Positions 12,251 to 62,147 of a stretch of 64,000 nucleotides of DNA are shown here, one piece after another. Source of the DNA: a bacterium (GTDB lineage Bacteria; Patescibacteriota; Minisyncoccia; Minisyncoccales; GWA2-46-15); NCBI GenBank assembly GCA_030693425.1, contig JAUYAM010000002.1:384632-448631 (forward strand). Reading direction: 5' to 3'. Made by a program: the position numbers and the translations under genes. Each line of letters opens with the position of its first letter. The first letter of the stretch is position 1. The notes beneath the pieces were generated by a model that made no database searches, was not told the origin of the DNA, and saw nothing but the letters and a program-made list of their open reading frames with translations.

Positions 12251-12841
12251 ATGAAATACGTATTTTTCGACATCGATTTTACCCTTTTTGACTGCCGCAA
12301 GTTCGAAAGAATGGTTTTTGCAAAGCTTAAAAAAGATCTTTTTAGTTTTTCTCTTCGGGCGCTGAAAAAGGATTTGAAAGCTGCGCGGCATTTTATCACC
12401 ACCACGCCGGAAAAGATCGACGCCTCGCAGCTGACAGGTTCCTTTCTCGACCCCGCCTATTACCAAAAAGCTCTTTTCCCCGATGCTCTGCCGGCCCTGC
12501 AGGCTCTCAAAAATACGGCAAAGCTCGGCGCTTGGTCTGAAGCTAATCCCAAAAAACAGATGATAAAACTAAAGCTGTCCGGCCTGATAAACTTTTTTGA
12601 ACCCGAACTCCTTTACCTCTCGAGGCGGAAATTCAGGCTCGTAAAAAAGATCGTTGATTCCTGCGGCCTGGAAAACGTGATTTTTGTCGACAACAAGCCA
12701 AAACTGATCAAGAAGCTTTCTGGTCTTGGAATCCAATCGTTCCTGATAGACCGTTTTAACACACAACCGGCAAAGGTCCCGACCATAAGAACCCTTGCTT
12801 CCCTGCCGGACCTGCCTATCCTATTCTCGGAAAAGAAATGA
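12251..12841 (+). CDS. HAD-superfamily hydrolase
   Basis: Motif I FFDIDFTLFD. Confidence 0.7.
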   Translation: MKYVFFDIDFTLFDCRKFERMVFAKLKKDLFSFSLRALKKDLKAARHFITTTPEKIDASQLTGSFLDPAYYQKALFPDALPALQALKNTAKLGAWSEANPKKQMIKLKLSGLINFFEPELLYLSRRKFRLVKKIVDSCGLENVIFVDNKPKLIKKLSGLGIQSFLIDRFNTQPAKVPTIRTLASLPDLPILFSEKK

Positions 12842-39324: not shown

Positions 39325-39344
39325 TAAAAAGTTGTCAATGCGGA
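39325..39344 (-). repeat. tRNA-trailer motif copy R0 (the actual 3' trailer of tRNA-Ser)
   Basis: Minus strand ..CCTTCCG-CATTGACAACTTTTTATCGGC. Confidence 0.8.
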
Positions 39345-39425
39345 AGGGGTGGGATTCGAACCCACGGACCCCGTGAGGAGCATGGTTCTCCAAACCATTC
39401 CATTTGACCGCTCTGGCACCCTTCC
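39341..39425 (-). tRNA. tRNA-Ser (anticodon GGA), long variable arm, CCA not encoded
   Basis: Acceptor GGAAGGG/CCCTTCC, anticodon stem ATGGT/ACCAT with loop TTGGAGA, T-arm GTGGG-TTCGAAT-CCCAC. Confidence 0.9.
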
Positions 39426-41506: not shown

Positions 41507-43144
<1,638 letters not shown>

Positions 43145-43995: not shown

Positions 43996-46851
43996 TCATT
44001 TTCCAAGAACGTTTTTTAAATACTCTCCGGTATAGCTCCTTTTGCTTTTGATAATCTCTAAGGGCGTTCCTTCGGCTACTATATATCCTCCCTCGTCTCC
44101 TCCTTCTGGTCCTAAATCTATCACATAATCTGCATTTTTCACTACGTCTAATTCATGTTCTATACAAATCACGGTATTGCCTCGATTAACCAATTCTTTT
44201 AAAACATATAAGAGTTTTTTGATGTCATCGGGGTGGAGACCGGTAGTTGGTTCATCTAAAATATATAGGCTCTTGCCGGTAGCTTTTTTGGAAAGTTCAG
44301 CTGCTAATTTTACCCGCTGGGCCTCTCCGCCAGAAAGAGAAACTGCCGGCTGGCCCAATTCAATATAGCCCAAACCGACATTATTCAGGGTCTTCAGCTT
44401 CTGAACCAATGCCGGAATGTTCTTGAAAAAGCCTAGGGCTTCCTCGATTGTCATTTCCAAGACTTGAGCGATGTTCTTGCCGCGAGCCTCGCCGGCAGGA
44501 ATATATTCTACCGCCAGGGTTTCCTGATTAAACCTTTTACCCTTACATTCCTGGCATTCCTGATAAACGTCCGGCAAAAAGTACATCTCGATTTTGATCT
44601 CGCCTTGGCCTTCGCAAGCCTCGCACCTCCCCCCTTTGACGTTAAAGCTGAACCTGCCCGGCCGATAACCCTTTATTCTGGCTTCTCTAGTTTTGGAAAA
44701 AAGATCCCTGATATGGGAAAAGGCTCCGCTATAGGTTGCCGGATTGGATCTGGGAGTCCGGCCTATCGGCGACTGGTCAACCAGAACCACTTTATCGAGA
44801 TGCTCCAATCCCAAAATTATCTGGTGCTTCCCCGGTTCTTCCTTGGCTCGGTAAAACTTTTTCATCAAAGCTTTAGCTAAAATATCGTTCATCAAAGAGC
44901 TTTTCCCAGAACCAGAAACGCCAGTAATGCAAACAAATCTCCCTAAAGGAATTTTCACATCAATGCTTTTCAGGTTGTGCTCTTTTGCACCTTTTATCAC
45001 CAAATTTTTTTGTTCTTGTTTAACTTGTTTAACCCCTGAGGTTAAACATTTTGAAATCTCAACTGTTTTCCTGCCAGCCAAATAGTCCCCGGTTAAGGTT
45101 TTGCTTTTTAAAAGCTGTTTTGGCGTGCCCGAAAAAACAACCTTACCGCCGTGCTTGCCGGCTCCAGGGCCAATATCAATTATCCAATCTGCTGCCTCAA
45201 TTGCTTGTTTGCTGTGCTCTACTATTATGATAGTGTTTCCTAAATCCCTTAATTTTTTCAGGGCCCGGATAAGTCTTTGCTGGTCTCTGACGTGCAAGCC
45301 AACCGAAGGCTCGTCAAGAATGTAGAGAACGCCTGTCAGCTGGCTGCCCAGCTGGGTTGCCAATCTTATCCTCTGCTCTTCTCCCCCGGCCAGGGTAGAA
45401 GCCTTTCTGGACAAAGACAGATAATCAAGGCCAACGTCAATGAGAAACTGGAGTCTGTTCAAGATTTCTTTTAAAATCGGCTGGGAAACTTTTTTCTGCC
45501 GCAAAGTCAACGATTTCTTTAAAAGAAGGTTTTCAAAAAGCTTCCGGCAGTCGGCAATGCTCATGTCCACGGCCTTGTCAATTGAAAGGCCCGAAACCGT
45601 GACAGCCAGAGCTTCTGGTTTCAGTCTTTTTTCCTGACATTCTTCGCAAAGCCTTTCCGCCATATACTGTCCGATTTCAGCTCGAGCGTAGTCTGAATCG
45701 GTCTGATGATACCTTCTCTCCAGCCAAGGAATAACTCCTTCCATGTTCTTGTCTCCGTAAAGAATGCTCTTGACTGCCTCTTTTGAGAGTTCTTTCACGG
45801 GTATATCTAAAGGAACTTTGTGCTTTTCCGAGAGATTTTGAAGCCGCCGCCAGAAAAACCCCTGCCTGCCGGTTTTATGTGAAGCGTGGGCCCAGGGAAA
45901 AATCGCCCCTTCTCCCAGAGTCAGATTTGGATTAGGAATGACCAGTTTCGGATCTACCTCAAGCCTTTCCCCCAAACCCTGGCAAGCCGGACAGGCGCCG
46001 TAAGGAGAATTGAAGGAGAAAAGACGAGGCTCGATTTCAGGCAACGATACTCCGCATTCCTCGCAGGCAAAGTGCTCGCTGAAAATCAGGTCCTCATTTT
46101 CGGATTTTGCACTTTGCGGTTTGCGCTTTACGCTAACAATCGCTACCCCTTTTCCGAGCTTTAAGGCCGTTTCCAAAGAATCCACCAGCCTGGATTTGTC
46201 TAAACTTTTGTCAATCACCAATCTGTCAACAACAACTTCAATGTCATGCTTTCTTTTCCCGTCAAGGGCTTTTCCCAAAGCTTCTTCGATCCTGTAAACA
46301 ATGCCGTCAATCCTGACCCTGACAAAACCGGCTCTTTTAATTTCTTCCAAAACGCCTGAGTGCTCGCCTTTTTTGCTCCTGATGACCGGCCCCAAAATCA
46401 TGATCTCTGTTCTTTTAGGCAGCCGGTAAACTTGTAAAGCTATCTGGTCAATCGTCTGCCTGCCTACTTTTTTGCCGCACTTTGGGCAATGAGGCTCTCC
46501 GGCTCTGGCGAATAAAAGCCTCAAATAATCATATATCTCGGTGATGGTGCCGACAGTAGATCTCGGGTTATGGCTTGCTTTTCTCTGGTCAATAGCAATA
46601 GCCGGGGAAATCCCTTCAATCTTGTCAACGTCGGGCTTTTGCAAAACACCCAAAAACTGTCTGGCATAGGCAGACAGAGATTCTAAATACCTTCTTTGCC
46701 CCTCGGCGTAAAGAGTGTCGAAAGCCAGAGAGCTTTTTCCGGAGCCGGAAAGTCCGGTAATGACCACCAATTTATTCTTGGGAATATCAACGTCAATATT
46801 CTGCAAGTTATGCACCCTCGCCCCGCGAATTTTAATGAAGTTTTCCGGCAT
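43996..46851 (-). CDS. uvrA: Excinuclease ABC subunit A
   Basis: Two ABC modules ([14 protein letters not shown].., [10 protein letters not shown]..), zinc fingers CPKCGK and CEACEGQG. Confidence 0.97.
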
Positions 46852-46872
46852 TTATTGATGAGTTTAAGTCAA

Positions 46873-47022
46873 GCCCCGTAGGAAATGGGATATTTTCCGT
46901 ACTCAGATTGATTGCCTGACGATTCCAGATAACCAGGCTTAGAAATGAAGAAAGGGTTTTTGAAGAGAAAATATCCCGCTCATTCTGTTGACCACGAAAA
47001 CCCCTATGATTTCCTACGGGGC
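46873..47022 (-). ncRNA. Structured 5' leader of uvrA (long-range helices; candidate cis-regulatory RNA)
   Basis: Perfect 14-bp pairing 46873-46886/47009-47022 and perfect 11-bp pairing 46887-46897/46967-46977; lies between a consensus promoter and the uvrA ATG. Confidence 0.45.
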
Positions 47023-47036
47023 AAGGCAATAGGCGC

Positions 47037-47065
47037 ATTATACCTTAATTTTAAAAGCTTTTCAA
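47037..47065 (-). promoter_or_regulatory. Near-consensus sigma-70 promoter directed toward uvrA
   Basis: Minus strand TTGAAA-17 nt-TATAAT. Confidence 0.65.
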
Positions 47066-47069
47066 TATT

Positions 47070-47099
47070 ATGTACTGGTTCATGACATATGATACACTT
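47070..47099 (+). repeat. 30-nt box ATGTACTGGTTCATGACATATGATACACTT (copy 2 of 2)
   Basis: Identical to 10751-10780. Confidence 0.85.
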
Positions 47100-47123
47100 T
47101 GGCGATCCGAGCTGTTACCTGGT

Positions 47124-47226
47124 AGTTGCTTAACCCGGCTAAGCAACTCCAAGTAAACCAACAGTAGTTGCTTAATAGTTGCTTAACCCGGTTAAGCAAC
47201 TCTAGGCAACTCCGGTCAAGTAACTC
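47124..47226. repeat. Array of AGTTGCTTAAC / GTTAAGCAACT boxes (two palindromes plus extra half-sites)
   Basis: 47124-47148 (one mismatch), 47166-47176 half-site, perfect 24/25-nt palindrome at 47177-47201, degenerate boxes at 47205-47213 and 47218-47226. Confidence 0.8.
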
Positions 47227-47263
47227 AAATGATAAACAGAGTTGAAAATGATGCGAAATTGAT

Positions 47264-47289
47264 CTTGTGCGAAGCCCGGCTTCGCACAA
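47264..47289. repeat. Perfect hairpin TTGTGCGAAGC-CCG-GCTTCGCACAA
   Basis: 11-bp stem; related hairpin TTGTGC.AGGC/GCCT.GCACAA at 20369-20393. Confidence 0.7.
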
Positions 47290-47332
47290 ACACTCGGCGG
47301 CGCTTACCTTAAGTGATATAATTGATTAAGAA

Positions 47333-48331
47333 ATGACTCGGCTAACTTTTGCCAAAATCTTCGCTTTTCTTGTTTGCTTAACCCTGATTTTAATTGGAAT
47401 GTTTTTTGTTTTAAAACCGGCTGTTTTTGATTTCCGGGCATCAACAACTCCCGCGCCGGAGCCGGAAAAACCGATTATCCTTTTATTCGCCGGTGACATC
47501 ATGCTCGACCGAGGCGTGGAATACATGGTCGGAAAATACGGAGAAAACGATTTTTCTTTCCCTTTTCTGAAAATTTCAGAAAGAACCAGGCAAGCCGATC
47601 TGGCTATTGCCAACCTTGAAAGCCAAATTTCAGACAAAGGCGAAAAACAAGGCTCTATTTATTCTTTCCGGGCAGAGCCTGGAGCCATTGAAGGGTTAAA
47701 GCTGTCCGGCTTTGACATTTTGTCTCTGGCCAACAACCACAGTTTTGACTACGGTAAAGAGGCTCTTCAAGACAGCCTGAACCGACTGATTGACGTCGGG
47801 ATTTCTCCGCTCGGGGCTGGAACCGAAAGCCAGGCTTTTTCCCCGACAATCAAAACAGTCGATAAAACCAAATTTGCCTTTTTTGCCTACGCAGACGAAA
47901 GCCCGTCTTCTTGGAAAGCCAAAGGTGAGAGCTTTGGTATCGCCTCAATCTCAAAAGAAAATCTCGAAAGGATAAAACAAGATATCAAGCTGGCAAAAGA
48001 ATTGGCAGACCTGGTCATTGTCTCTTTCCACTGGGGAGAAGAATATGCCAAAGAGCCCAGCCAGCATCAAAAGGATCTGGCAAAAACAGTCATTGACGCC
48101 GGAGCAGACCTGGTTGTCGGCTCCCACCCTCACGTCATCCAAAGCTCGGAAACATACAATGGCCGTTATATCTTTTACAGTTTAGGGAATTTTGTCTTTG
48201 ACCAGGGTTTTTCTGAAGAAACTCTTGAAGGAGAAATTCTCGAAGTCACTATCCAGGACAAAAAGATTAAAAAAGTCTCCCCAACTAAGATAAAGATTAA
48301 TGAGTTTTTCCAGCCGGAAATTGCGCTATAG
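47333..48331 (+). CDS. CapA/PgsA-family metallophosphatase-like protein (poly-gamma-glutamate synthesis type)
   Basis: FAGDIMLDRG, NLESQI, LANNHSFDYG, GSHPHV motifs; extended -10 TGATATAAT upstream. Confidence 0.8.
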   Translation: MTRLTFAKIFAFLVCLTLILIGMFFVLKPAVFDFRASTTPAPEPEKPIILLFAGDIMLDRGVEYMVGKYGENDFSFPFLKISERTRQADLAIANLESQISDKGEKQGSIYSFRAEPGAIEGLKLSGFDILSLANNHSFDYGKEALQDSLNRLIDVGISPLGAGTESQAFSPTIKTVDKTKFAFFAYADESPSSWKAKGESFGIASISKENLERIKQDIKLAKELADLVIVSFHWGEEYAKEPSQHQKDLAKTVIDAGADLVVGSHPHVIQSSETYNGRYIFYSLGNFVFDQGFSEETLEGEILEVTIQDKKIKKVSPTKIKINEFFQPEIAL

Positions 48332-48380
48332 CAAGCAGTATGCTCGATATATCGAATCCTATTCGCTATAATATAAGAAT

Positions 48381-50735
48381 ATGAAAAAACCGCTTAAAAT
48401 CATCCTCTTGGCAGCCTTAATCTCTCTTGTTTTTGCCGGCGGCCTGCCTTGGGCTCAAGCTGAATATCCGGAAAATATCAAAAGGCTTTTGGAGCAGATA
48501 ATTGACTTAAAAGCCCAGATTGCCAGGCTCCAGGTCCAGCTCATCCAGCTTCAGGGAAAAATCCCTTCTTACGAGAACGTGCCGGCCGGCTTTGCTTTTA
48601 GCAAAGATTTGAAATCCCAAGACTACAGCGATGAAGTCAAGCACCTCCAGACAATCCTTAAAAAAGAAGGTTTTTTCTGCCAGAAATGTCAGACCACCGG
48701 CTATTTCGGCTACTGGACCGAAACAGCGGTCAAGGCTTTTCAGGAAAAATACGCTTCAGAAATCCTGAACCTCACCGGCCAGGCAAAAGGATCGGGCATA
48801 GTCGACAAAGCCACCCAGGCAAAGCTAAATTCGCTTTTAGTTTCAACGGCAAAAAACCCTTTGACTCCTTCGCCTAGCCCATCTCCCTCGCCTTCTCCCA
48901 GCCCTTCGGTTTCGCCATCGCCGTCAGCGTCGCCTTCTCCCAGCCCGTCATTGTCGCCGTCGCCCTCGCCAACTGTCTTTAACTTTGATTTATCTGTCAG
49001 TCCGCCCTCATACTCTGCCAGCCAGGGAACACAGACAACAACCAATGTTTATGCGGTTTCCAACACCGGCCACAGCTATCCGGTTTCTTTTTCCGTCACC
49101 GGTTTGCCGAACAATGTCACCTCTTCTTTCTCTTCAATCAGCTGCTACTTGAATTGTTCCTCGGTTTTATCGATTTCCACCTCTTCTTCAACGCCAGCCG
49201 GCGCTTATCCTATTTCTATTATTGGAACCGCCAATAACTTAACGAGAAGTGCCGTTTTTTCTTTAACCGTCACCACCGCTATTTCCGCTCCCCAGGCAAC
49301 GACCAACGAAGCAAGCAGCGTCCAGATCAGCCAGGCTCAGTTAAACGGGAACATTGTTTCTTTTGGGGGAACTAGCCCGGCTTGGATCTGGTTCGAATGG
49401 GGGCCAACGATCGCTTACGGCAATGCCACCGTCTGGAAAGAGATAACGAGTCCGGCCTCTTTTTCTGAAACAATTGCTAACCTGATTCCCGGCACCACCT
49501 ACCATTTTAGGGCGGCAATCCGCACTACTGCCGGCGGCACTGCCTACGGCCAAAAGCAGACTTTCAGCACCCTGCCCGCTCCCGCCATTGATCTGAAGGC
49601 AAACAGTTCTGACGGCCCGATCACCATTTCCTACAACGCTAGCGCCAATCTTTCCTGGGCTTCAACCGGTGTTACCAGCTGCACTGCCTCGGGCGGCTGG
49701 TCGGGAACTAAAGCAATTCAAGGGTCAGAAAACACCGGCGCCCTAACCAACTCAAAAACATACACCCTCACCTGCTCTTCTACTGCCGGTCAGGCGTCGG
49801 ACTCGGTCACTATCAATGTTCTACCCCAACCCACCCCGGTCAGCCCAAAAGTCTATCTTTTGATTTTTAACCCCGTCATTGAATCTGAGGGGAATAAAAA
49901 GCTGACTGTTTTTAAGGGTTGGAACGACCCTGACCAATTAAGCCAACAGTATATCCAGGACGTCAAACAAGCTTCTGCCAATCTTGCCAACTACCAGATT
50001 TCCGAAAGGCTGGAAGCAGATGCCATTTTCCGCCTCAAAGACGGCTATCAGTATACCGACGAGTCTTATCTTCAGTGCCTGAACAACAACTCTACTTGCC
50101 ATACTCCTTGGGAAGTTGACTACAATTTAATTCTCAGTACTTATAACATCTGTGAAAAACTGAACAGCGGCCTTATTGACGAACTCTGGCTTTTCGGCGG
50201 ACCGTGGTTCGGATACTACGAGTCTAGATTAGCCGGACCAGGAGCTTTTTGGTACAACTCCCCGCCCCTGACCGGCACTACCTGCAATAAGCTCCTGCCG
50301 ATTATGGGCTTTAATTACGAAAGAGGAGTGTCGGAAATGCTCGAGGACCTCGGCCACCGAACAGAATCAACAATGTGGCACGTCTACGGCTCGTGGAATA
50401 ACACCCTGTCTGACCACGCCTGGAATATTTATACTCATTACGATAAAACTACGCCGGGCCAGGCTCGCTGCGGCAACGTCCATTACGCCCCGAATAGCCA
50501 ATCGGATTACGATTGGAGCAATGCCGGTTATGTCGATTCTTACTGCGGCGACTGGTATAATTACCCCAACTTGATTGGCGCAAGGCAAAACATTAATTGC
50601 TCGGCTTGGAACTGCGATTCTCGCAGTTACCACAAGTGGTGGCTAAGCCACCTGCCCCGCGCCTCCGGAACCAGCTCGGGCAAGCTCAACAACTGGTGGA
50701 AATATATCGCCGATTACAATAATATTTCTCAATAG
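48381..50735 (+). CDS. Secreted surface protein: signal peptide, coiled coil, PG-binding-like domain, SP-rich linker, Ig/Fn-like domains, unknown C-terminal domain
   Basis: LKAQIARLQVQLIQLQ coiled coil; DEVKHLQTILKKEGFF..TGYFGYWT..AFQEKY. Confidence 0.8.
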   Translation: MKKPLKIILLAALISLVFAGGLPWAQAEYPENIKRLLEQIIDLKAQIARLQVQLIQLQGKIPSYENVPAGFAFSKDLKSQDYSDEVKHLQTILKKEGFFCQKCQTTGYFGYWTETAVKAFQEKYASEILNLTGQAKGSGIVDKATQAKLNSLLVSTAKNPLTPSPSPSPSPSPSPSVSPSPSASPSPSPSLSPSPSPTVFNFDLSVSPPSYSASQGTQTTTNVYAVSNTGHSYPVSFSVTGLPNNVTSSFSSISCYLNCSSVLSISTSSSTPAGAYPISIIGTANNLTRSAVFSLTVTTAISAPQATTNEASSVQISQAQLNGNIVSFGGTSPAWIWFEWGPTIAYGNATVWKEITSPASFSETIANLIPGTTYHFRAAIRTTAGGTAYGQKQTFSTLPAPAIDLKANSSDGPITISYNASANLSWASTGVTSCTASGGWSGTKAIQGSENTGALTNSKTYTLTCSSTAGQASDSVTINVLPQPTPVSPKVYLLIFNPVIESEGNKKLTVFKGWNDPDQLSQQYIQDVKQASANLANYQISERLEADAIFRLKDGYQYTDESYLQCLNNNSTCHTPWEVDYNLILSTYNICEKLNSGLIDELWLFGGPWFGYYESRLAGPGAFWYNSPPLTGTTCNKLLPIMGFNYERGVSEMLEDLGHRTESTMWHVYGSWNNTLSDHAWNIYTHYDKTTPGQARCGNVHYAPNSQSDYDWSNAGYVDSYCGDWYNYPNLIGARQNINCSAWNCDSRSYHKWWLSHLPRASGTSSGKLNNWWKYIADYNNISQ
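48866..48972 (+). repeat. Coding low-complexity Ser-Pro repeat (linker)
   Basis: Translates to PSPSPSPSPSPSPSVSPSPSASPSPSPSLSPSPSP. Confidence 0.9.
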
Positions 50736-50825
50736 CCAAAACCTTCTCCTTAATACCCGTAATTGACATTATTGGCCGGGGGGGTATATTGAGGGCAGAA
50801 GAGCATAATAAATTAAGCTTAAAAT

Positions 50826-53800
50826 ATGGCAAAACGAATCTCAAAAATCGTTTTTATCCTAATAATCTCGGGGGTTTTTAGTTTAGCTGTAAGCCCCTCT
50901 TTGGCACGGGCAATTACAAGCCAAGAGATTTTAGATCAAATAGCACAACTTCAAGCCCAAATTGTTGCTTTGCAGCAGCAATTACAGCAATTGCCAGGCA
51001 CAACTGCGGTTTGGTGCCACGATTTTAATACTAATTTAAAATATGGTGATGCTGGCGGTACGGAAGTTGATGCTCTTCATGTTGCTCTGGAAAAACAAGG
51101 GTTCGACATCAATGAAGACGAATTTGCCAATAACGTATTTGGCGAATACACCGCTTCAGCTGTGGTTGGCTTTCAGGTAAAATACTCTTCAGAAATATTG
51201 ACGCCTTTGGGGTTGAAATACGGCACTGGCTTTGTCGGCAAGGCAACCAGAGAAAAACTGAACAAGCTTTATGGCTGTATTCTCCCGCCAACAACGAGAC
51301 CTTTATATCAAGTGGAGGTATTTAATGAGATGGGAGATTGGAGTAAGACATTGACGCGCGGCACAAAATACACTTTTGTCGGGAAAATCTCTAATGGGAA
51401 GCCGAATTCGCAGATACTCTTTTACCTTCAAAGACCAGACGGGACAATGGAATATAATGGTTTATTTGACTGGCCGCCGGGCTGTTCGGTTGGAGAAGGT
51501 TGCGGTGGTTCACGATTTTCTACTGACGCCAACGGCAACTTCAAGCAAACTATCACGGAAGTTATCCCAAACAACACTCAAACCGGCACCTGGATTTCCT
51601 GGGTGACCGTCGCGGGAAGTATGTCTAATAGGCTATATCATTCTGTAGTTGCTACCGCCGGTCCTTCTATTACCATTCTCTCTCCCAACGGCGGGGAGAA
51701 TTGGGTGATAGGCAAAACCTACTCAATCGTTTGGGAATCGTCAGGTCTAACACCCTCTGATAAAATTTTAATCTCTGCCGTAAGTTCTACGGGGTGGGAA
51801 GGCCACATTGCCTACAATATCCCAGGCAACTTAGGGTTATATTATTGGGCGATTCCGTCTAATTTTGCAGCCGGTTCCTACAAAATTAAACTTGATGCCT
51901 GTAAGCCCACTGGAGAATGCTATTCTGATTTGAGCGATAATTATTTCAGCATTGTTTCAACAGCTACAGGTTCTCTCTACCTTTCTACTTCTCCTGATAC
52001 GCCGCCTGCGCAGAAGATTATAAAAGGAGTCAGCACCACTTTGTTAAAAGCAAAATTCACTGCCAGCAACGTTGAGGATATAAGAATCAATGGTTTTGAT
52101 ATTTATCCGTTTCTGGCGTCAGAGAGTCGCCCAGTGCCGGTCGGGGATGTCGTCAAGTTCAAACTTTACGACGGCGCAGTCCAAATCGGCCTTCCTTGGT
52201 ATTCGCCAAACTCGTCTGGATATGTTGCGGTTACTAATCTCAATTGGGTTATTTCTAAGAATGCGTCAAAAATACTGACGGTCAAAGCCGAAGCATCTTT
52301 AAACAGCACTACCACCGCTTTTAAGCTAGTGATAAATAGCGAAGCTTTGTCTGCCACCGGCCTAAGCTCCAACTCCGCTGTTCAAAAAAGTGGCAGCGCT
52401 GTTGGAAGCGTGATGACTATTATCGGAAATGAAGCAAGTATTACCGTTCTCTCCCCCAACGGCGGAGAGAAATGGATAAAAGGAACGACACAGGCGATCA
52501 AGTGGCAGGACAACACGCCAATTTCGTTATGCGCAACTGGAGCTGGAGCGTCTTGCGTGTCTCCCGCGCCAAAATACTATGACATTAAGTTATTCACCTA
52601 CTATCCGCCGTGCACCGAGACTATTTGCCCCATGAATGTGGTTGCGCCGTCGTATACGATTGCAAAGAGCGTATCCGGTTCTTTATATAGCTGGCCGGTG
52701 GGCAAGGTTTTGGACACAAACAATACTGCTCCCGACGGCTCATACACCATTCAGGTTTGTCAAATCAATTCTACAATCTGCGACTCAAGCAATAGCTACT
52801 TCAAGATTGTAAGCACGGGTGCAAATAATCCCCCTGTTATCAGCGGAATCCCTGCCATACCCTCAGATATCAAAGTCGGCCAATCCGTCTCGTTCAGTTG
52901 GAGCGCGACCGATGCTGATGGCGACAATCTTTCCTGGTCAGTCTCGTGGGGAGACGGAACCGGAATAGCAGAAGTATGCGTGTTGCCCAATCCGCAAAAC
53001 AAACAAGGCTGGACTTTCAAAGCGTCTCATGCCTGGGCAAACGCGGGAACATACACGGTGAAGGCAACAGTAAATGACTGCCGAGGCGGAAGCGCTAATC
53101 ACACGTTCAATGTAACTGTGGGAAGTAATGTTCAGCCTTTCGTTACTGTTATCTCACCAAACGGCGGGGAAACTTTTATAAAAGGGGTGTCTTACACCAT
53201 TAAATGGTCATCAAGCGGTTTTGCTTCAGGCGCCTGGGCCCAGATTCAGCTTCGAAAAGCTGAAAGTCCAGATCAAATAGTAAAAGTTATTGTCACTTCT
53301 ATGCCGATGTCGGCCGGGAGTTATGATTGGACAATTCCTTCTGATGTTCCTGACGGCAAGTATCTTATTTGGATGACTGGCCCAGCGCCGTCTCTGATAG
53401 ACTTCAGCGACGCGCCGTTCAGCATTGTTTCTTCTCCCACTCCTTCCATCACCGTTCTTTCTCCCAACGGAGGGGAACAGTGGAGAGTGGGAAATACCTA
53501 TTCAATCATTTGGGAATCGTCGGGCCTAACACCTTCTGATAATATTTTAATTTCTGCCGTAAGTTCTGCAGGGCAAGAATTCCACATTGCTTATAATATC
53601 GCGGGTAATTTAGGATTATATTATTGGGCGATCCCGTCTAATTTCACAGCCGGTTCCTACAAAATTAAAGTTGAGGGCTGTAAATCTGCTGGGGCGTGCT
53701 ATTCTGATTTGAGCGACAATTATTTCAGCATTACTGCGGCAATAGCCAAGCCTTCCATCACCGTCCTTTCCCCCAATGGCGGGGAGGAATTCAACATCGG

Positions 53801-55013
53801 ATCGCCGATGACAATCAAGTGGCAAAATATTAATTACCGTAACAGCGTTGTTAATATTTTCCTTTACAGAAGCAATAAAATTCCTGGCGACCTGGACTAC
53901 AATTACGTGGCGCAGATCGGAAACTTGGGCCAGCCGAACGACGGCATGGAAACATGGATTATCCCTTCATCAATCCCTCCCAGCGATAACTACTTTATAA
54001 GGGTCAATCTAGACGTCCAAGATCCCCAGACCGGATTTGATATGGTTGACGACAGCAACGCCCCCTTTAGCATTGTTTCTTCTATCGCCTGTACTGATTC
54101 AGACGGCGGAGAAAACTATTACACAAGAGCAAAAGCTACCGGTCTATATGCTAGTTCAGTCCAAACTGGTTGGATTTTTGGCGAGGATCCCAACAAAGCC
54201 AGTTCCCGGCGCGATGAAACGTTAAACTACAGCATATACTACGATCATTGCTTTGACAGCGCGACGTCAAACCAACTAAACGAAGGGTATTGCAACGCGG
54301 ATGGGAAATTAGCCTCCTCCGGTTATCAATGCCCTTTTGGTTGCCAGGACGGCGTTTGCAAACAAGCGGTTAAGTTTCCCGATCTCGCGGCGCCAGCCGG
54401 TCTGACCGTTACGCCCGACCGCCGCTTGGTGAATCAAGAAATCCTTATCACTTTCAAGATGATAAATCAGGGTGAAGCCACAGCTTCGCCGGCAGTGTAC
54501 ATGTATACTAAACAGGCGGACGGATTCAGCAGCATCCATCAATCTAATACCTGCACCAATTCAACCGTCTTACAACCGGGAGAAGGATGTTTGGCGGCAT
54601 ATGTTTTTAAATTCCCGACTCCCGGCATGAAACAAATAGAGGTTAAGCTGGATCCCTCAAATCAATTAAAGGAACCCAATGAAAATAATAACGTCTTCGG
54701 CATAGGTTTTGAGGTAGTAGAAAGCCCGGTGTTTTCCAATCTTTCTGCCGACCTTTCTTCTGATAAAGCATCTTTCAATTTCAGTTTCTCGGAAACATCA
54801 AGCCTATACCGAATTGATATGTCAATACTGCCGGATATGTCCTGGGGCACCTACCTAGACTTTACCTGGGGCGAAAAATCCCCTCTTACTCACGATAGCC
54901 CCCAAGCGCGCTGGGACCAATATCGCTGCGGCCAAACGCTTTACTGGAGAGTTTACAGCTCCGGTAGAGGCGACCAAAGCCCGATTCAAAAAGCGATTGT
55001 CAATTGCCTATAA
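50826..55013 (+). CDS. Giant secreted surface protein (1395 aa): coiled coil, PG-binding-like domain, multiple SPNGGE-type Ig-like repeats, PKD-like domain, CARDB-like C-terminus
   Basis: Signal peptide; QLQAQIVALQQQLQQL; at least 5 repeats starting I(T/S)(V/I)LSPNGGE; PKD-like WSATDADGDNLSWSVSWGDG. Confidence 0.85.
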   Translation: MAKRISKIVFILIISGVFSLAVSPSLARAITSQEILDQIAQLQAQIVALQQQLQQLPGTTAVWCHDFNTNLKYGDAGGTEVDALHVALEKQGFDINEDEFANNVFGEYTASAVVGFQVKYSSEILTPLGLKYGTGFVGKATREKLNKLYGCILPPTTRPLYQVEVFNEMGDWSKTLTRGTKYTFVGKISNGKPNSQILFYLQRPDGTMEYNGLFDWPPGCSVGEGCGGSRFSTDANGNFKQTITEVIPNNTQTGTWISWVTVAGSMSNRLYHSVVATAGPSITILSPNGGENWVIGKTYSIVWESSGLTPSDKILISAVSSTGWEGHIAYNIPGNLGLYYWAIPSNFAAGSYKIKLDACKPTGECYSDLSDNYFSIVSTATGSLYLSTSPDTPPAQKIIKGVSTTLLKAKFTASNVEDIRINGFDIYPFLASESRPVPVGDVVKFKLYDGAVQIGLPWYSPNSSGYVAVTNLNWVISKNASKILTVKAEASLNSTTTAFKLVINSEALSATGLSSNSAVQKSGSAVGSVMTIIGNEASITVLSPNGGEKWIKGTTQAIKWQDNTPISLCATGAGASCVSPAPKYYDIKLFTYYPPCTETICPMNVVAPSYTIAKSVSGSLYSWPVGKVLDTNNTAPDGSYTIQVCQINSTICDSSNSYFKIVSTGANNPPVISGIPAIPSDIKVGQSVSFSWSATDADGDNLSWSVSWGDGTGIAEVCVLPNPQNKQGWTFKASHAWANAGTYTVKATVNDCRGGSANHTFNVTVGSNVQPFVTVISPNGGETFIKGVSYTIKWSSSGFASGAWAQIQLRKAESPDQIVKVIVTSMPMSAGSYDWTIPSDVPDGKYLIWMTGPAPSLIDFSDAPFSIVSSPTPSITVLSPNGGEQWRVGNTYSIIWESSGLTPSDNILISAVSSAGQEFHIAYNIAGNLGLYYWAIPSNFTAGSYKIKVEGCKSAGACYSDLSDNYFSITAAIAKPSITVLSPNGGEEFNIGSPMTIKWQNINYRNSVVNIFLYRSNKIPGDLDYNYVAQIGNLGQPNDGMETWIIPSSIPPSDNYFIRVNLDVQDPQTGFDMVDDSNAPFSIVSSIACTDSDGGENYYTRAKATGLYASSVQTGWIFGEDPNKASSRRDETLNYSIYYDHCFDSATSNQLNEGYCNADGKLASSGYQCPFGCQDGVCKQAVKFPDLAAPAGLTVTPDRRLVNQEILITFKMINQGEATASPAVYMYTKQADGFSSIHQSNTCTNSTVLQPGEGCLAAYVFKFPTPGMKQIEVKLDPSNQLKEPNENNNVFGIGFEVVESPVFSNLSADLSSDKASFNFSFSETSSLYRIDMSILPDMSWGTYLDFTWGEKSPLTHDSPQARWDQYRCGQTLYWRVYSSGRGDQSPIQKAIVNCL

Positions 55014-55071
55014 GGCGCGGGTTAAAAACATCCTGGGAAAAGGTAAAACCTAAAGCTGAAATGGGTTTAAA

Positions 55072-56358
55072 ATGACAAGATTTCTTTTCCTTAAACCCGC
55101 GAGAATAAAAACCTTGCCAAAAAGCTCTGGCGTTTATCAATTCCGCTCAAGCGAGAACGAAATTTTATACATCGGCAAGGCCGTCAACCTCAAAAGAAGA
55201 GTCCGCGACCACTTCCGCAAAGCCAATCTCAAAGACAAGCTCTTGGCCGATCTGACAGAAAAGGTCGGCTACTTTCAAACTGGCTCGGAAATCGAAGCTT
55301 TGATTTTGGAGGCAAATTTGATCAAAAGATATTTGCCGAAATACAACGTCATGTGGCGCGACGGCAAAAACTATCTTTATGTCGGCTTTGCCAAAGAAGA
55401 ACTGCCAAGAATTTTTATAACGCACCAGCCAGACGCGACCGCCAGCAAGCTCAAAACTCAAAACGCAAAGCGCAAAGCCACAGCTCAAAACTTAAAACTT
55501 ATTGGACCATTTATAGACGGTAAATCTCTCAAAATCGCCCTACGACTTTTGCGCCGGGTTTTTCCCTATTATGTCTCCGGAAAACACGCTTCAAAGCCTT
55601 GCCAAGGCTGCCTTATCGGGCTCTGCCCGGGGCCGAATCCTGATGTCAGAGAATACCGCAAGAATATCAGAAACCTGGCCGCAGTCCTTAAGGGAAAAGG
55701 AGCCAAGATCCTTAAGGACTTAAAAAAAGGGATGGTTGAGGCGGCCGAAATCCAAAACTTTGAAAAAGCGGCCAGGATCAGGGATCAAATTATGGCCTTG
55801 GAAACGATCTTTGCTCATAGTAAAACCCTCGCCGCTCCACAACCAGACGCCTCAAAGATCCTTCAGAAAATCTTAAAATCTAAAAAACCTATCTCCAAGA
55901 TCGAAGCCTACGATATCTCCAATATCCAGGGCCAGGAAGCAACCGGTTCGATGGTCAGCTTTGCCGACGGAAAACCAGACAAAAGTTTTTACCGAAGATT
56001 TAAGATAAAGATTTCCGGAGGGCCAAACGACGTTGCCATGATCAAAGAGGTCTTGAAAAGAAGGCTGAATCATCCCGAGTGGCCTTATCCAGATTTAATC
56101 TTAATCGACGGCGGAAAACCCCAGCTCAACGCGGCGATAGCTTCTAAATCAGAAATCCTGAATGCCAAAGACATTAGAATAATTGCATTAGCCAAGAGGA
56201 AAAACGAACTCTTTATTGAGGGCCGGAAATCAGTCCTTCTGCTCAAAAGCCTACCCAGGCCGATTTTCAATCTGGTCTTGCAGTTAAGAGACGAAGCCCA
56301 CCGCTTTGCCCGAAACTACCACTTGAAATTGAGGCGAAAGAAATTCTTGAGTATTTAA
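55072..56358 (+). CDS. uvrC: Excinuclease ABC subunit C, short form without C-terminal (HhH)2
   Basis: GIY-YIG GVYQFRSSENEILYIGKA; UVR motif FEKAARIRDQIMALE; endonuclease region IEAYDISN..ILIDGGKPQ; only 428 aa. Confidence 0.85.
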   Translation: MTRFLFLKPARIKTLPKSSGVYQFRSSENEILYIGKAVNLKRRVRDHFRKANLKDKLLADLTEKVGYFQTGSEIEALILEANLIKRYLPKYNVMWRDGKNYLYVGFAKEELPRIFITHQPDATASKLKTQNAKRKATAQNLKLIGPFIDGKSLKIALRLLRRVFPYYVSGKHASKPCQGCLIGLCPGPNPDVREYRKNIRNLAAVLKGKGAKILKDLKKGMVEAAEIQNFEKAARIRDQIMALETIFAHSKTLAAPQPDASKILQKILKSKKPISKIEAYDISNIQGQEATGSMVSFADGKPDKSFYRRFKIKISGGPNDVAMIKEVLKRRLNHPEWPYPDLILIDGGKPQLNAAIASKSEILNAKDIRIIALAKRKNELFIEGRKSVLLLKSLPRPIFNLVLQLRDEAHRFARNYHLKLRRKKFLSI

Positions 56359-56395
56359 CATTGACCGCCGACTATTTTCTTGCTATTATTAAGCA

Positions 56396-56743
56396 ATGTG
56401 GAACCTAATTTTGAGAGTAGCCGGATCCACTGCCGGCATCTGGTTAGCCGACAGATATATTAACGGAGTTCAGGTTTCAGGCGACTGGAAAACTCTTTTG
56501 ATTATTGGCGCCGTCCTGGGCGCGGTCAATTTCTTTTTAAAGCCTTTACTGAATGCTATCGCCCTGCCCCTGAAAATATTGACCCTCGGCCTTTTTAGCC
56601 TGATAATCAATATGGTTCTGGTCTGGCTGGTTGACATCGCCTTCACCGAACTGGTCATTACCGGCCTGATTCCTCTTTTTTGGACAACAGCCATTGTCTG
56701 GCTGGTGAACTACGTCTTGCAAAAGTGGCTGCCCGGGGAGTGA
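56396..56743 (+). CDS. Phage-holin-4/DUF360 family small membrane protein
   Basis: 115 aa, 3-4 TM; LGAVNFFLKPLL..LTLGLFSL pattern. Confidence 0.6.
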   Translation: MWNLILRVAGSTAGIWLADRYINGVQVSGDWKTLLIIGAVLGAVNFFLKPLLNAIALPLKILTLGLFSLIINMVLVWLVDIAFTELVITGLIPLFWTTAIVWLVNYVLQKWLPGE

Positions 56744-56777
56744 AAACTCGAATGGTCGCTGCGATTTCGCCGCGCGA

Positions 56778-56817
56778 CCCGTCCCGCTGGAAGCGGGACG
56801 GGATCAAAGATTTTTTC
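56778..56817 (+). terminator. Intrinsic terminator
   Basis: CCCGTCCCGC-TGGAA-GCGGGACGGG then ..GATTTTTT. Confidence 0.7.
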
Positions 56818-56854
56818 GAGTTTCTACTACCCAGTGCCGGACAAATAAAATCTC

Positions 56855-57106
56855 ATGGATCTCTCAAACATCCTCGGATTAATTTCCCAACTTAAACCTT
56901 ATCTGCCGGCGGCGCAGATTGTCGTCGCCCTGCTTTTGATTATCCTGATCCTGCTTCAGCCAAGAGGGGAAGCTTTGGGATCTGCTTTCGGCCAGAGCTT
57001 TGCCACTGTTGGAAAATTGCGGGGAGCTTCAAAAAGCATATTTTGGTTCACTATTGTTCTCGGCGTCATTTTCATCCTGCTCGCCTTGCTAAATCTTGTC
57101 GTTTAA
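56855..57106 (+). CDS. secG: Preprotein translocase subunit SecG
   Basis: 83 aa, two TM; LLQPRGEALGSAFG motif. Confidence 0.7.
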   Translation: MDLSNILGLISQLKPYLPAAQIVVALLLIILILLQPRGEALGSAFGQSFATVGKLRGASKSIFWFTIVLGVIFILLALLNLVV

Positions 57107-59133
57107 TGTCTCTCCTACTTTCCTCTGCGAAAGGGAGATTAAAAAGGTTTCTCGAAAATCTTCCTTCTAGGAGGCAATGCCAAAAGTTTTTTGAAGTCTT
57201 GAGCAAAGAGGAAAAAAAATATTTTCTGGCTTTTTTGGTTTTGTTTGCAGCCTCTCTAGTTTTCTTGTCTCTTGATTTTTACTTTAAGGGCACCGAAATC
57301 AAGCCCGCTTTCGGCGGCACTTTTTCCGAAGGGGTCTTAGGCCAGCCGAGGTTCATCAACCCGATCCTGGCGGCAGTCAATGACGTTGATCGCGACCTGA
57401 CAGAACTGGTTTTTGCCGGACTGATGAAATATTCTTCCCAAGGAGAAATAGTTCCCGACTTGGTTGAAACTTATGAAATAAGGGAGAACGATAAAATCTG
57501 GGATCTGACTTTGAAAAAAGATTTAGTTTTCCAGGACGGCTCCTCTCTGACCGCAGACGACGTCATTTTCACCATCAAAACCATCCAAAACCCTGACTAC
57601 AAAAGCCCTTTGAGGGCGAACTGGCTGGGCATTGAAGTGGAAAGGATTTCCGACTTAAGAATCCGCTTCAAGCTGAAAAACAGCTACCCTGCTTTCCTGG
57701 AAACCCTGACTCTAAAAATCATGCCGAAAAAGGTCTGGGAAGGGATTTCTCCGGATAACTTCCCTTTGGCGATCTTCAATCTAAAACCAGTCGGTTCCGG
57801 GCCATACCGGGTCGCCGAAATTCTCCAGGAAAAGAGCGAAACCGGCCGGATCAAATCATTAGCTCTAGACGTCAATCCCAAATATTACGGCAAAATCCCG
57901 AATATTAAAGAGATTATTTTTGTTTTCTTTGAGGAGGAAAAAGACTTGGCGAAAGCGGCCAAAAGCAAAGAAATCCAGGCTTTCATCCTTCCTTCTCTGA
58001 AAGACAAGGACCTTCTGGAGAAAAAAGGGTTTTTAAGCCATGCTTTCAGCCTGCCGAGATACTTTGCTGTTTTCTTTAATCAGAAGAGCTTCCCGCCCCT
58101 CGCAGACAAAAACATCAGGACGGCCCTGAATTACGCCACCAACAAAAGAGAGATAATCAATGAAGTTTTGTTCGGCAACGGCCGGATTACCGATTCGCCC
58201 CTTCTGCCAGCTCTTTTCAATTTTGCCGAACCGAAGACCATTTTCAAGTTCAGCCTCAAGAAAGCCAACGACATCCTGGACAAAACCGGTTTCAAATTGG
58301 ATCCTCAAACCCAGATCCGCCAGAAAACAGTCGACAGAAAACCCTCTTTCCAGTTCAAAAGCAACCTTTCCAAGGGATCTCAGGGCGTCGAAGTCAAAGA
58401 GCTCCAAAAATGCCTGGCCCGGGACTCTGAAGTTTACCCTGAAGGAGAAGTTACCGGCGTCTTTGGCGACAAAACCAAGCAGGCTGTCATCAAGTTCCAG
58501 GAAAAATACCGTCAGGAGGTTCTTGCCCCTTCCAATCTTGAAAACGGCAACGGTGAAGTCGGCTTGGTGACGCGGAAAAAGCTGAATGACTGGTGTTTCG
58601 GCCCGAGCCAGGAAACTCTCCAGCTGAAATTCTCTTTGCTGACCGTTGACGACCCGACTCTTCTGAAAGCTGCGGAAATTCTTAAAAACCAATGGGCCAA
58701 AGCCGGAATCAGCCTGGATATAAAAAGCTTCAGTTTTTCCCAGCTGAGTTCCGAATTCTTGAAATCAAGGAATTATAACAGCCTTTTGTTCGGCGAGGTC
58801 CTCGGGCTGACTCTTGACCTTTTCCCTTTTTGGCATTCTTCCCAGGAAAAAGACCCCGGTTTGAACCTTGCCCTTTACAAAAACCAGGGCGCTGACAAAC
58901 TTCTCGAGCAGGCCCGCCAGACTTTTGACGAAGATTTGAGAAAACAAAAACTGGAAGAATTCCAGGAAATCCTGCTCAAAGACGCGCCCGCCGTCTTCCT
59001 TTACCAGCCGGATTTTCTTTACATAGCTTTGCCAAAAATCAACGGAATCAAAGCAGGCATAATCGCCGATCCCTCAAAAAGGTTTGTCGACGTTGAAAAT
59101 TGGCATATAAAGATAAAAAGGGCATGGAAATGA
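57106..59133 (+). CDS. ABC transporter family-5 substrate-binding protein (peptide/nickel type) with an inserted PG-binding-like domain
   Basis: Start moved to the ATG overlapping the secG stop (TAATG); FQDGSSLTADDVIFT; insertion at 58375-58593 resembles the PG_binding_1-like module. Confidence 0.8.
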   Translation: MSLLLSSAKGRLKRFLENLPSRRQCQKFFEVLSKEEKKYFLAFLVLFAASLVFLSLDFYFKGTEIKPAFGGTFSEGVLGQPRFINPILAAVNDVDRDLTELVFAGLMKYSSQGEIVPDLVETYEIRENDKIWDLTLKKDLVFQDGSSLTADDVIFTIKTIQNPDYKSPLRANWLGIEVERISDLRIRFKLKNSYPAFLETLTLKIMPKKVWEGISPDNFPLAIFNLKPVGSGPYRVAEILQEKSETGRIKSLALDVNPKYYGKIPNIKEIIFVFFEEEKDLAKAAKSKEIQAFILPSLKDKDLLEKKGFLSHAFSLPRYFAVFFNQKSFPPLADKNIRTALNYATNKREIINEVLFGNGRITDSPLLPALFNFAEPKTIFKFSLKKANDILDKTGFKLDPQTQIRQKTVDRKPSFQFKSNLSKGSQGVEVKELQKCLARDSEVYPEGEVTGVFGDKTKQAVIKFQEKYRQEVLAPSNLENGNGEVGLVTRKKLNDWCFGPSQETLQLKFSLLTVDDPTLLKAAEILKNQWAKAGISLDIKSFSFSQLSSEFLKSRNYNSLLFGEVLGLTLDLFPFWHSSQEKDPGLNLALYKNQGADKLLEQARQTFDEDLRKQKLEEFQEILLKDAPAVFLYQPDFLYIALPKINGIKAGIIADPSKRFVDVENWHIKIKRAWK

Positions 59134-59705
59134 AGACAAAATCAAGGGAAATCCGCCTGGTCAAAGATCTTAAAGATATTCTTTTTGACAAAGACTGGGC
59201 CAAATCGGCCAAAGATTTCAAAGTCTATCAGGTCAGCCGAGGAATGAAATACAGAAAAGACGGTTTGAGATACGACCAAACCGTTATTTTCCCAAAGCTC
59301 TTGGGGAAGGAATATCCGAAAACCAAAGGCCACGAGCATCCCAAAGAATACGTAGAACTGATCGAAGTTCTGCAGGGGCAAGCAATCTTTCTTCTCCAAA
59401 ACGATCAAGGAAATAAGGTCAAAGACGCCTATTTTATCAGGGCCAAAAAGGGCCAGGCCATAATCTCGCCCAGGGGTTATTCCCATACCACTATTAATAC
59501 CTCGGGAAAGATTTTGAAAATCGGCACCTGGATTGAAGACGTTTCCGAAAGCGACTACCATAATATCAAAAGGCTCAAGGGCTTTTGCTACTATTGCACT
59601 CTCTCCGGCTGGAAAAAGAACAAAAACTACAAAAGAGTTCCCAAGCTAAAAGAGAAAAAGCCTTTGAAATCATTTCCCAAAAACCTTGATTTTCTAAACT
59701 GTTAA
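59124..59705 (+). CDS. Cupin-type glucose-6-phosphate isomerase-like protein
   Basis: TKGHEHPKEYVELIEVLQGQAIFLLQ cupin metal motif; about 190 aa. Confidence 0.55.
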   Translation: MEMKTKSREIRLVKDLKDILFDKDWAKSAKDFKVYQVSRGMKYRKDGLRYDQTVIFPKLLGKEYPKTKGHEHPKEYVELIEVLQGQAIFLLQNDQGNKVKDAYFIRAKKGQAIISPRGYSHTTINTSGKILKIGTWIEDVSESDYHNIKRLKGFCYYCTLSGWKKNKNYKRVPKLKEKKPLKSFPKNLDFLNC

Positions 59706-59771
59706 ACGCGGGCATGGCGAAACTTAGCAGACCCCGAAGGACATTCGTGACTACGGGGCAAGTGCGTAGTT

Positions 59772-59854
59772 CGCCCAGGTGGTGAAACCGGAAGACACGC
59801 TAGCTTCAGGAGCTAGTGCCTAAAAAGCATGCGGGTTCGAATCCCGCCCTGGGC
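59772..59854 (+). tRNA. tRNA-Leu (anticodon CAG), long variable arm, CCA not encoded
   Basis: Acceptor GCCCAGG/CCTGGGC, anticodon stem CTAGC/GCTAG with loop TTCAGGA, T-arm GCGGG-TTCGAAT-CCCGC. Confidence 0.9.
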
Positions 59855-59984
59855 ACAAAAAATCTAGAGGCCTGCCCCGTAGCTCTGCCGAAGGTAGAGA
59901 TTTGGGGCTTCCTTCTCGCCCACTTTACTAACTCTAATCTATTGTTTTCGTTATAATAAGTTTTAATTAAGACAGTTTAACGTT

Positions 59985-61697: not shown

Positions 61698-61730
61698 CTC
61701 CAATTTTTCTCGTTGTTTTTCGTCGAACAC

Positions 61731-61780: not shown

Positions 61781-61802
61781 AATATAACGATAAAACAGGA
61801 TT

Positions 61803-62128: not shown

Positions 62129-62147
62129 GTAATATACTGGTTTTCAA

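Follow-up and report, generated by a model that had tools for sequence, protein, structure and literature searches.

The 150-base feature that lies between the promoter and the start codon of uvrA in the 64,000-nucleotide stretch of DNA analysed here (the window; contig JAUYAM010000002.1 of assembly GCA_030693425.1) is, very probably, one copy of a family of miniature transposable elements with inverted repeats (MITEs) in Parcubacteria (candidate phyla radiation (CPR)/Patescibacteria), the family being non-autonomous, approximately 148 bp long and characterized by 13-bp terminal inverted repeats and a 4-bp target-site duplication. Membership of the family, the terminal repeats, the duplication, dispersal in multiple copies and empty sites in relatives are all directly established, and the sequence comparisons suggest that the family is active or recently active in these bacteria. 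The initial annotation had favored a dedicated leader RNA controlling uvrA, a reading that we abandon in view of arms found at many unrelated loci and of five out of seven uvrA relatives that lack the element. The predicted structure belongs to the transposon and is not an evolved device for the control of uvrA. The alternative offered by the same annotation, a miniature element with terminal repeats and a right arm interrupted by approximately 31 nt, is the one borne out by the repeats, duplications, multiple copies, nesting and empty sites. The locus was described over positions 46600-47400, and its features are as follows.

43996..46851, minus strand: uvrA, the gene whose 5' untranslated region (5'UTR) took the MITE insertion.
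46870..46873, plus-strand CAAG (minus-strand CTTG): target-site duplication, copy 1, read from the sequence.
46874..47021, minus strand (sense strand of the family, co-directional with uvrA): whole MITE copy, 148 bp, from profile, covariance model and alignment.
46874..46886, minus strand: 3' terminal inverted repeat ATTTCCTACGGGG, 13 bp, from the repeat search and the 38-copy alignment.
46887..46898, minus strand: 3' strand of helix P2 together with the right subterminal block, GGAAAATATCCC, a conserved helix.
46952..46960, minus strand: 3' strand of helix Pa, AAAACCCTT, pairing with the Pa 5' strand.
46966..46977, minus strand: 5' strand of helix P2, GGGATATTTTCT, the 11-bp helix of the initial annotation, GGG/CCC in the window copy against AAA/TTT in most copies.
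46997..47005, minus strand: 5' strand of helix Pa, AGGGGTTTT, with 17 sequence variants across copies and complementarity kept.
47009..47021, minus strand: 5' terminal inverted repeat CCCCGTAGGAAAT, 13 bp, from the 38-copy alignment.
47022..47025, CAAG on the plus strand: target-site duplication, copy 2, read from the sequence.
47037..47065, minus strand: sigma-70-type promoter TTGAAA-17-TATAAT, the native uvrA promoter, of the same type as that found directly before the uvrA ATG in related loci L005, L007, L008, L009 and L010.

The window copy scored 103.8 bits against the family profile (nhmmer) and 109.3 bits (E 3e-19) against covariance model R1, of which it was the only match in the window, and it could be aligned with 37 other copies. 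A repeat search recovered at 100% match both inverted repeats that had been described, the outer one of 14 nt (46873-46886 with 47009-47022) and the inner one of 11 nt (46887-46897 with 46967-46977). Thirteen pairs of the outer helix belong to the element. The fourteenth (G46873-C47022) is made by bases of the target-site duplication and lies outside the element, because the last base of one CAAG copy faces the first base of the other. The 31-nt bulge and 70-nt interior previously drawn between the arms need amending as well, as a third conserved helix was found inside them (46997-47005 with 46952-46960). The proposed promoter on the minus strand upstream of uvrA, which encodes a protein of 951 aa, stands and matches 11 out of 12 positions; the MITE lies 15 nt downstream of its -10 box, and the gap between the outer arm and the uvrA ATG, given before as 22 nt, was found to be 21-22 nt. 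On the transcript strand the leader was predicted to fold at -54.7 kcal/mol (z -2.87, with 1 of 200 shuffles equally good) and to leave the last ~30 nt, including the AUG, unpaired, and in the minimum-energy fold a competing helix of GGGGUUUUCGUG with ACGGAAAAUAUCCC takes the place of the 11-bp helix. The only open reading frame (ORF) that crosses the copy (46832..47038, 68 aa) has its start within the -10 box and gave no match in Pfam. Neither the 25-nt arm nor the 13-nt terminal repeat occurs again within the window.

That the pairing is not accidental, as had been argued, is best shown by the homologues found elsewhere. A scan of the JGI/ENA metagenome collection with the two-arm pattern CCGTAGGAAAT-N(105-135)-ATTTCCTACGG returned 74 loci, mostly from groundwater and sediment, none of which carries UvrA (tblastn). 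Arms at many unrelated loci are what the initial annotation had named as refuting its leader-RNA reading. Profile and covariance-model searches yielded 56 full-length copies of 146-153 bp, 44 of them with distinct flanks, and model R1 gave copies 100-150 bits on the sense strand against ~40-55 bits on the opposite strand. Two to three copies occur within 5-12 kb on a single contig in L048, L077, L019, L043, L045, L015 and L029. The neighboring genes are housekeeping genes unrelated to one another; those confirmed by Pfam encode SecF, sigma-70 (RpoD), FtsZ, L13, S2, a 5'-3' exonuclease, a response regulator, a radical-SAM/TRAM (MiaB-like) enzyme and a class-I (Trp/Tyr) tRNA synthetase, and copies sit within the secD|secF, ftsA|ftsZ and dnaG|rpoD gene boundaries. 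The SecD of one host is closest to proteins from Parcubacteria, Nealsonbacteria and Wildermuthbacteria. An 18-mer arm scan of genome contigs, among which the genome of the window was not included, gave three chance matches in Actinomycetales and Clostridia, and scans of viral contigs with two patterns gave 0 matches. Loci L013, L027 and L030 were rejected as family members since their contigs are whole-contig palindromes that matched the two-arm pattern by construction (the flanks around the midpoint are mutually reverse-complementary, and these contigs are probably assembly artefacts), and L021 and L028 proved unrelated to the family.

The copies also bear the marks of transposition. With the element boundaries taken as CCCCGTAGG ... 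CCTACGGGG, exact 4-bp direct repeats flank 34 of the 44 copies; the duplicated sequence varies (TATG, TAAA, TAAG, CATG, CTTG, CGAG, TGAA, TTGA, TATA), and ~30 of the 34 fit TAWR. Filled and empty versions of the same site were found at two junctions, secD|secF and DUF8128|TrwB-like: both are occupied in L019, and L086, L087, L089 and L090 have the bare sites with one TATG. The empty secD|secF junction in L086 reads ...AAGAATTATGAATATTCCC..., and its filled counterpart in L019 reads ...AAGAAT-TATG-[element]-TATG-AATATTCCC...; at the DUF8128|TrwB-like junction L019 carries two elements in tandem and three TATG copies. The relatives with empty sites are syntenic, their SecD is 79-81% identical, and 75 kb of their sequence contained no element copy. 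Between different loci, copies reach 95-99% identity, as in L067 and L046 (up to 99%). The two ftsA|ftsZ copies (L050 1447-1595 and L067 2739-2890) are 80% identical to each other and 95-99% identical to copies at other loci, and because each is closer to copies elsewhere we regard the insertions in L050 and L067 as independent. The same gene boundary has thus been hit independently in different lineages (ftsA|ftsZ, and probably the uvrA leader as well), pointing to hot spots or to very few permissive sites. Insertion of one element into another was seen at L032 324-815, where a ~345-bp element that has the same terminal repeats houses a type-A copy (duplication TAAA). The ~345-bp element is a second, longer non-autonomous family with terminal repeats in common with type-A copies; at L019 5725-5910 it is represented by its 3' part alone, which stands in tandem with a type-A copy and with three TATG in a row. 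Other length classes (~115, 131 and 215 bp) have the same terminal repeats and mostly 4-bp duplications. The properties that define MITE families have been summarized (PMC10969869; PMC2229807), and those found here are a length of 146-153 bp without coding capacity, terminal inverted repeats, a variable 4-bp duplication and filled and empty orthologous sites.

At uvrA itself, the closest database relatives of the protein are 73-77% identical and come from the 'Patescibacteria group', 'Candidatus Nealsonbacteria' and further metagenome-assembled genomes, and the only exact match is an identical Logan contig. Among the seven related uvrA loci compared (L005-L011, with L010 and L011 taken together in listing), the element is absent from five, namely L005, L007, L008, L009 and L010/L011 (UvrA 76-77% identical), where TTGA(A/G/T)-spacer-TATAAT is followed by 7-12 nt and then the start codon. 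From these five element-free loci it follows that the ancestral uvrA was near-leaderless and that only a minority of lineages have acquired the element by insertion. The comparison of uvrA upstream regions that the initial annotation had called for thus brought out no conserved association of the element with uvrA. L006 (GCA_030704795.1) is the only relative with a copy, a homologous element that abuts the uvrA ATG in the same orientation as in the window. This copy is 62% identical to that of the window and closer to copies at other loci; the left flanks of both include ATTGCC(T/A)TG, and the duplications are CTTG in the window and ATG in L006. Given the differing duplications and the 62% identity, the two insertions are probably independent rather than orthologous. 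At L008 2992-4200, a 402-aa ORF with faint helix-turn-helix and LAGLIDADG matches lies on the opposite strand with an overlap of ~50 nt with the 3' end of uvrA.

The alignment of 38 copies shows a strongly constrained element. Columns 1-11 of the 13-column 5' terminal repeat are invariant in 38 of 38 copies and columns 12-13 nearly so, and 98.8% of the cells of CCCCGTAGGAAAT / ATTTCCTACGGGG are paired across the 38 copies. Inward from the terminal repeat come a left subterminal block (GGGNTTTYCGTGG), an internal block (AAAATATTTTC ... AAAANCCC) that is followed by a variable A-rich segment, and a right subterminal block (AACCACGGAAAATATTTA); conservation is highest in the module formed by the ACGGAAAATATTTA block and the terminal repeat, which other families have too. 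In helix P2 the internal AAATATTTTC pairs with the right subterminal GAAAATATTT, and in helix Pa GGGNTTTY pairs with RAAANCCC, crossing P2 to give a pseudoknot topology. Both helices are present in every copy with many compensating variants, so that the inner 11-bp helix first noticed at uvrA is conserved across the family. One Pa position shows all four Watson-Crick pairs across copies, other Pa variants are GAGA/TCTC, GGAA/TTCC and AATGG/CCATT, and P2 varies by a compensated one-base deletion and by GGG/CCC in the window copy. Cognate strands outpaired non-cognate strands in 5000 of 5000 permutations, and column-wise counts were also above those of shuffles. Further single-copy observations are a compensated Pa variant in L048 (GGGCTTT/AAAGCCC) and, in two copies (L048 2867-3013 and L045 4132-4279), substitutions that mirror each other between the two terminal repeats (GTAAG / CTTAC for one copy, GAAGC / ..CTTC for the other).

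The manner of pairing bears on the level at which the constraint acts. Of 1242 helix cells (1248 minus 6 gapped), 1199 (96.5%) are Watson-Crick, sense-strand G-U cells (9) are not in excess over A-C cells (11), and the antisense strand folds slightly better than the sense strand (-41.7 vs -38.9 kcal/mol). Since pairing is of the Watson-Crick kind only, without G-U excess and with a folding antisense strand, the alignment points to a constraint on complementarity of the DNA and not to an RNA selected on the transcript strand. Candidate causes are transposase sites at both ends, a single-strand DNA intermediate and quasi-palindrome correction. A competing helix in the RNAalifold consensus, TTTTCGTGG/CCACGGAAAA, showed no covariation and was rejected as a conserved helix; we read it as an imperfect extension of the terminal repeat. 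Searches of Rfam at gathering and permissive thresholds with the window and eight family loci gave no match other than spurious miRNA and RNase P matches on generic hairpins, and the Rfam check suggested for the uvrA leader accordingly disclosed no known RNA family.

Placement relative to genes is markedly one-sided. In 22 of the 44 copies the downstream gene has its in-frame ATG 1 nt past the 3' end of the element (duplication NATG), these copies standing before no fewer than 14 different genes, and at five or more loci the TAA of the upstream gene forms the first three bases of the duplication; no mirrored case of either kind was found among the 44 copies. These ATGs are real starts, because the Pfam alignments of the downstream proteins begin at residues 1-11. 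As read from the copy sequences, the duplicated ATG creates a short upstream open reading frame (uORF) that runs into the 5' arm. Insertion at a start codon parts the gene from its initiation context, and copies persist in essential operons nonetheless. Three sources of the bias were considered and rejected. An internal promoter is not supported, as no conserved -35/-10 pair was found in either orientation (5 of the 44 copies have any pair at a common position) and the TAAAAT of P2 is CGGGAT or CGAAAT in the window copy and in about one third of copies. Antisense terminators are not convincing, as 18 of the 44 copies have no more than weak 5-bp stems containing G-U pairs with T-tails in flanking DNA, and a sense-specific RNA structure is at odds with the slightly better antisense fold and the lack of G-U excess. 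The bias may reflect an asymmetric target preference (~30/34 TAWR) together with very short spacers, or it may reflect selection for or against an orientation-specific effect on expression. In the window, a Shine-Dalgarno motif lies within 20 nt of only 8 of 45 long ORFs. Many genes of the window have their ATG just 8-12 nt past a -10-like box, for example at 47314-47335, 48360-48383 and 19581-20330; the box is TATAAT, TAAAAT or, at 47314-47322, the extended TGATATAAT. This suggests that leaderless or near-leaderless mRNAs are widespread in the host.

Several observations sit less comfortably with a plain MITE. No inverted arms 0.7-3 kb apart and no transposase-bearing parent were found in the fetched loci; no autonomous insertion sequence or transposase was found either, so that the DDE mechanism is proposed from the terminal repeats and the duplication only. 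The window holds a single copy, and the multi-copy state was seen in contigs of other hosts. Compensated internal helices, a strong orientation bias and frequent exact placement at start codons are atypical of passively decaying MITEs. Finally, no sampled copy is more than 65% identical to the window copy, whose terminal repeats, duplication and helices are nonetheless perfect, a combination that could reflect an unsampled subfamily or selection on this copy; derivation from an unsampled subfamily is the most likely.

Three other explanations were weighed. That the feature is a dedicated cis-regulatory leader RNA of uvrA, hiding or freeing the start region as a riboswitch, thermometer or SOS-like attenuator, would suit its site between a strong promoter and the ATG, its stable fold with a competing alternative helix and the second uvrA locus (L006) with a copy in the same orientation. 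We nevertheless consider it extremely improbable, as homologues occur at dozens of non-uvrA loci and five of seven related uvrA loci lack the element, target-site duplications and empty sites are present, there is neither an Rfam match nor G-U enrichment on the transcript strand, and the 62% identity between the window and L006 copies makes the uvrA insertions look independent. A REPIN/REP-like or attC-like palindrome moved by a single-strand-DNA enzyme (HUH/RAYT or integron-type integrase) in place of a DDE enzyme would account for the GTAG in the terminal repeat (CCCC-GTAG-GAAAT), for hairpin complementarity kept by compensating and even mirror-image changes with Watson-Crick pairs only, as for DNA hairpins, and for the orientation bias and arrays between co-directional genes. 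However, variable 4-bp duplications and a single copy of the target at empty sites are the signature of a staggered-cut DDE enzyme, and such staggered duplications are made neither by IS200/IS605-type or RAYT enzymes nor by attC recombination. The ends CCCCGTAGG ... CCTACGGGG also mismatch the attC cores RYYYAAC / GTTRRRY, neither a RAYT nor an integrase gene was seen beside copies, and their neighbors are core housekeeping operons rather than integron cassettes, so that this origin is very improbable.

An unlikely third explanation is that the MITE family has been exapted at the level of RNA or expression, with sense copies aiding the downstream gene and so persisting in essential operons, through benefits that might include a processing site yielding a leaderless mRNA, an unstructured A-rich standby region, a weak promoter or uORF-mediated coupling. 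The 22 of 44 ATG abutments and at least five stop-codon abutments without mirrored cases, the copies inside secD-secF, ftsA-ftsZ and dnaG-rpoD, the same boundary hit independently across lineages, and a host nearly without Shine-Dalgarno motifs, with -10 boxes 8-12 nt before the ATG and a duplicated ATG that gives a uORF, all speak for it. Yet there is no conserved -35/-10 pair, the antisense terminator-like sites are only weak, the sense RNA is not more stable than the antisense and pairs are of the Watson-Crick kind only, close relatives manage without the element, and the bias could equally stem from a target preference that is asymmetric, or arise because harmful antisense insertions are purged. 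In its most developed form, to which we give a low probability, the family would be a mobile expression module of Shine-Dalgarno-poor, near-leaderless Parcubacteria, inserted or retained in the sense orientation only and exactly at start codons, with the hairpin or its processing governing access to the real start codon behind the short uORF. If this were true, the copy before uvrA would contribute functionally to expression of that gene, and the Watson-Crick-only, compensated and mutually crossing internal helices would reflect a single-strand structure for transposition or for this function. A non-autonomous element that inserted into the uvrA leader remains by far the better account of the data.

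Comparable elements are known from other bacteria. Correia elements (CREE/NEMIS) of Neisseria are non-coding, ~100-160 bp long, and have both terminal inverted repeats and target-site duplications; they are scattered over intergenic DNA, in many cases immediately upstream of genes, and are co-transcribed. Their terminal repeats form a long hairpin in the mRNA, and expression can be altered by way of promoters, of IHF binding and of RNase III, which binds or cleaves (PMC2649163; PMC2229807). The Parcubacteria family is alike in size, terminal repeats, duplication and dispersal but has no sequence similarity to them, and unlike Correia elements it has no evident promoter or IHF site. Correia elements have 26-bp terminal repeats and a TA duplication, whereas the family described here has 13-bp repeats and a 4-bp duplication, and it resides in a CPR bacterium. 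In enterobacteria and yersiniae, ERIC/IRU elements are ~127-bp imperfect palindromes in transcribed intergenic regions with an orientation-dependent effect on mRNA, and the pneumococcal BOX, RUP and SPRITE elements are small interspersed repeats mobilized in trans by insertion-sequence transposases and co-transcribed, with context-dependent effects (PMC3049150). ERIC/IRU are unrelated in sequence and in host, and differ from our family, whose bias is nearly absolute and which abuts start and stop codons. BOX is modular and SPRITE terminator-like, an architecture unlike that of the Parcubacteria family, and neither a 4-bp duplication nor start-codon placement has been reported for them. REP/REPIN (RAYT) sequences are likewise extragenic palindromes with GTAG in the arm and preserved hairpin complementarity, but they are shorter and lack a target-site duplication, whereas the family here has empty sites and a 4-bp duplication of variable sequence; the called genes of the loci included no RAYT gene. 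A possible parent is an insertion sequence of the IS1380 family, whose ends begin with CC and which makes 4-5-bp duplications; the CCCCG ends and the 4-bp duplication seen here would fit, as a resemblance only. No transposase gene with the terminal repeats of the Parcubacteria family was found.

Taken together, the element is an insertion, in the usual sense orientation of the family, into a short uvrA 5'UTR, where it lies 15 nt past the -10 box and ends 22 nt short of the ATG. We propose that it was mobilized in trans by a DDE-type transposase of some insertion sequence. The native promoter was thereby displaced by ~150 bp from the start codon, and the element would now be co-transcribed with uvrA from that upstream promoter. 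In the transcript, the predicted fold indicates that the terminal repeats, with or without P2, may form a long leader hairpin. Expression of uvrA would be tolerated, and perhaps modulated, because the start region is single-stranded in the predicted fold. By analogy with Correia and ERIC elements, such a hairpin could alter mRNA stability or serve as a substrate of RNase III (PMC2649163; PMC3049150).

Other features of the window and the related loci were recorded alongside. Two 25-bp palindromes, AGTTGCTTAACCCGG(C/T)TAAGCAACT, lie at 47124-47148 and 47177-47201 with an extra half-site at 47166-47175 (region 47114-47201). They lie between the divergent genes uvrA and PGA_cap, at a distance of 60-140 bp upstream from the -35 box of uvrA; the full palindrome is unique in the 64 kb, and the pair may be the operator of some regulator. 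Between them and the divergent gene, a G+C-rich hairpin (TTGTGCGAAGCCCGGCTTCGCACAA, 47264-47290) has no T-run on either strand, and its only Rfam match is a spurious one to a miRNA. ORFs of at least 150 aa between 4110 and 46851 are all on the minus strand except 12251..12841 and one nested opposite-strand ORF in 41507..43141, and from 47333 to 63417 ORFs are nearly all on the plus strand, with one overlapping minus-strand ORF at 58033..58692. A replication origin at this strand switch near 47 kb was considered and rejected, as AT skew changes sign but GC skew stays negative. ARAGORN detected a tRNA-Ser (GGA) at 39340-39425 that is absent from the Rfam output at gathering threshold. In the long stretch upstream of secD (L086 3757-9999; L087 4181-9207; L090 1-2696), only LAGLIDADG homing-endonuclease ORFs were called. 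Ribosomal RNA (rRNA) genes with introns are known for CPR bacteria, and this gene-poor stretch is probably such a gene. The 9-mer CCGTAGGAA occurs once in the stretch upstream of secD in Parcubacteria relatives. At L076 1046-1180, a hairpin of ~135 nt that scores on both strands against a miRNA model may represent a further palindromic repeat family in the same genomes.

The assignment of the uvrA leader feature to a MITE family removes a false candidate riboregulator of nucleotide-excision repair from the annotation, and the profile and diagnostic ends (CCCCGTAGGAAAT ... ATTTCCTACGGGG plus a 4-bp duplication) can be used for masking this repeat in CPR assemblies. Our literature search found no paper linking MITEs with Patescibacteria, and none in which the arm sequence appears in such a setting. 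The family is thus new but its kind of element is known, and its hosts belong to a group for which the literature searched makes no mention of MITEs. Even the ultra-small, tightly packed genomes of Parcubacteria carry active or recently active MITEs, which insert into the few-nucleotide gaps of essential operons (secDF, ftsAZ, dnaG-rpoD and ribosomal protein genes) and duplicate the start codon on insertion. Their near-absolute orientation bias and compensated internal helices offer a testable case of elements that are either tolerated, or used, where Shine-Dalgarno-led initiation is mostly lacking.

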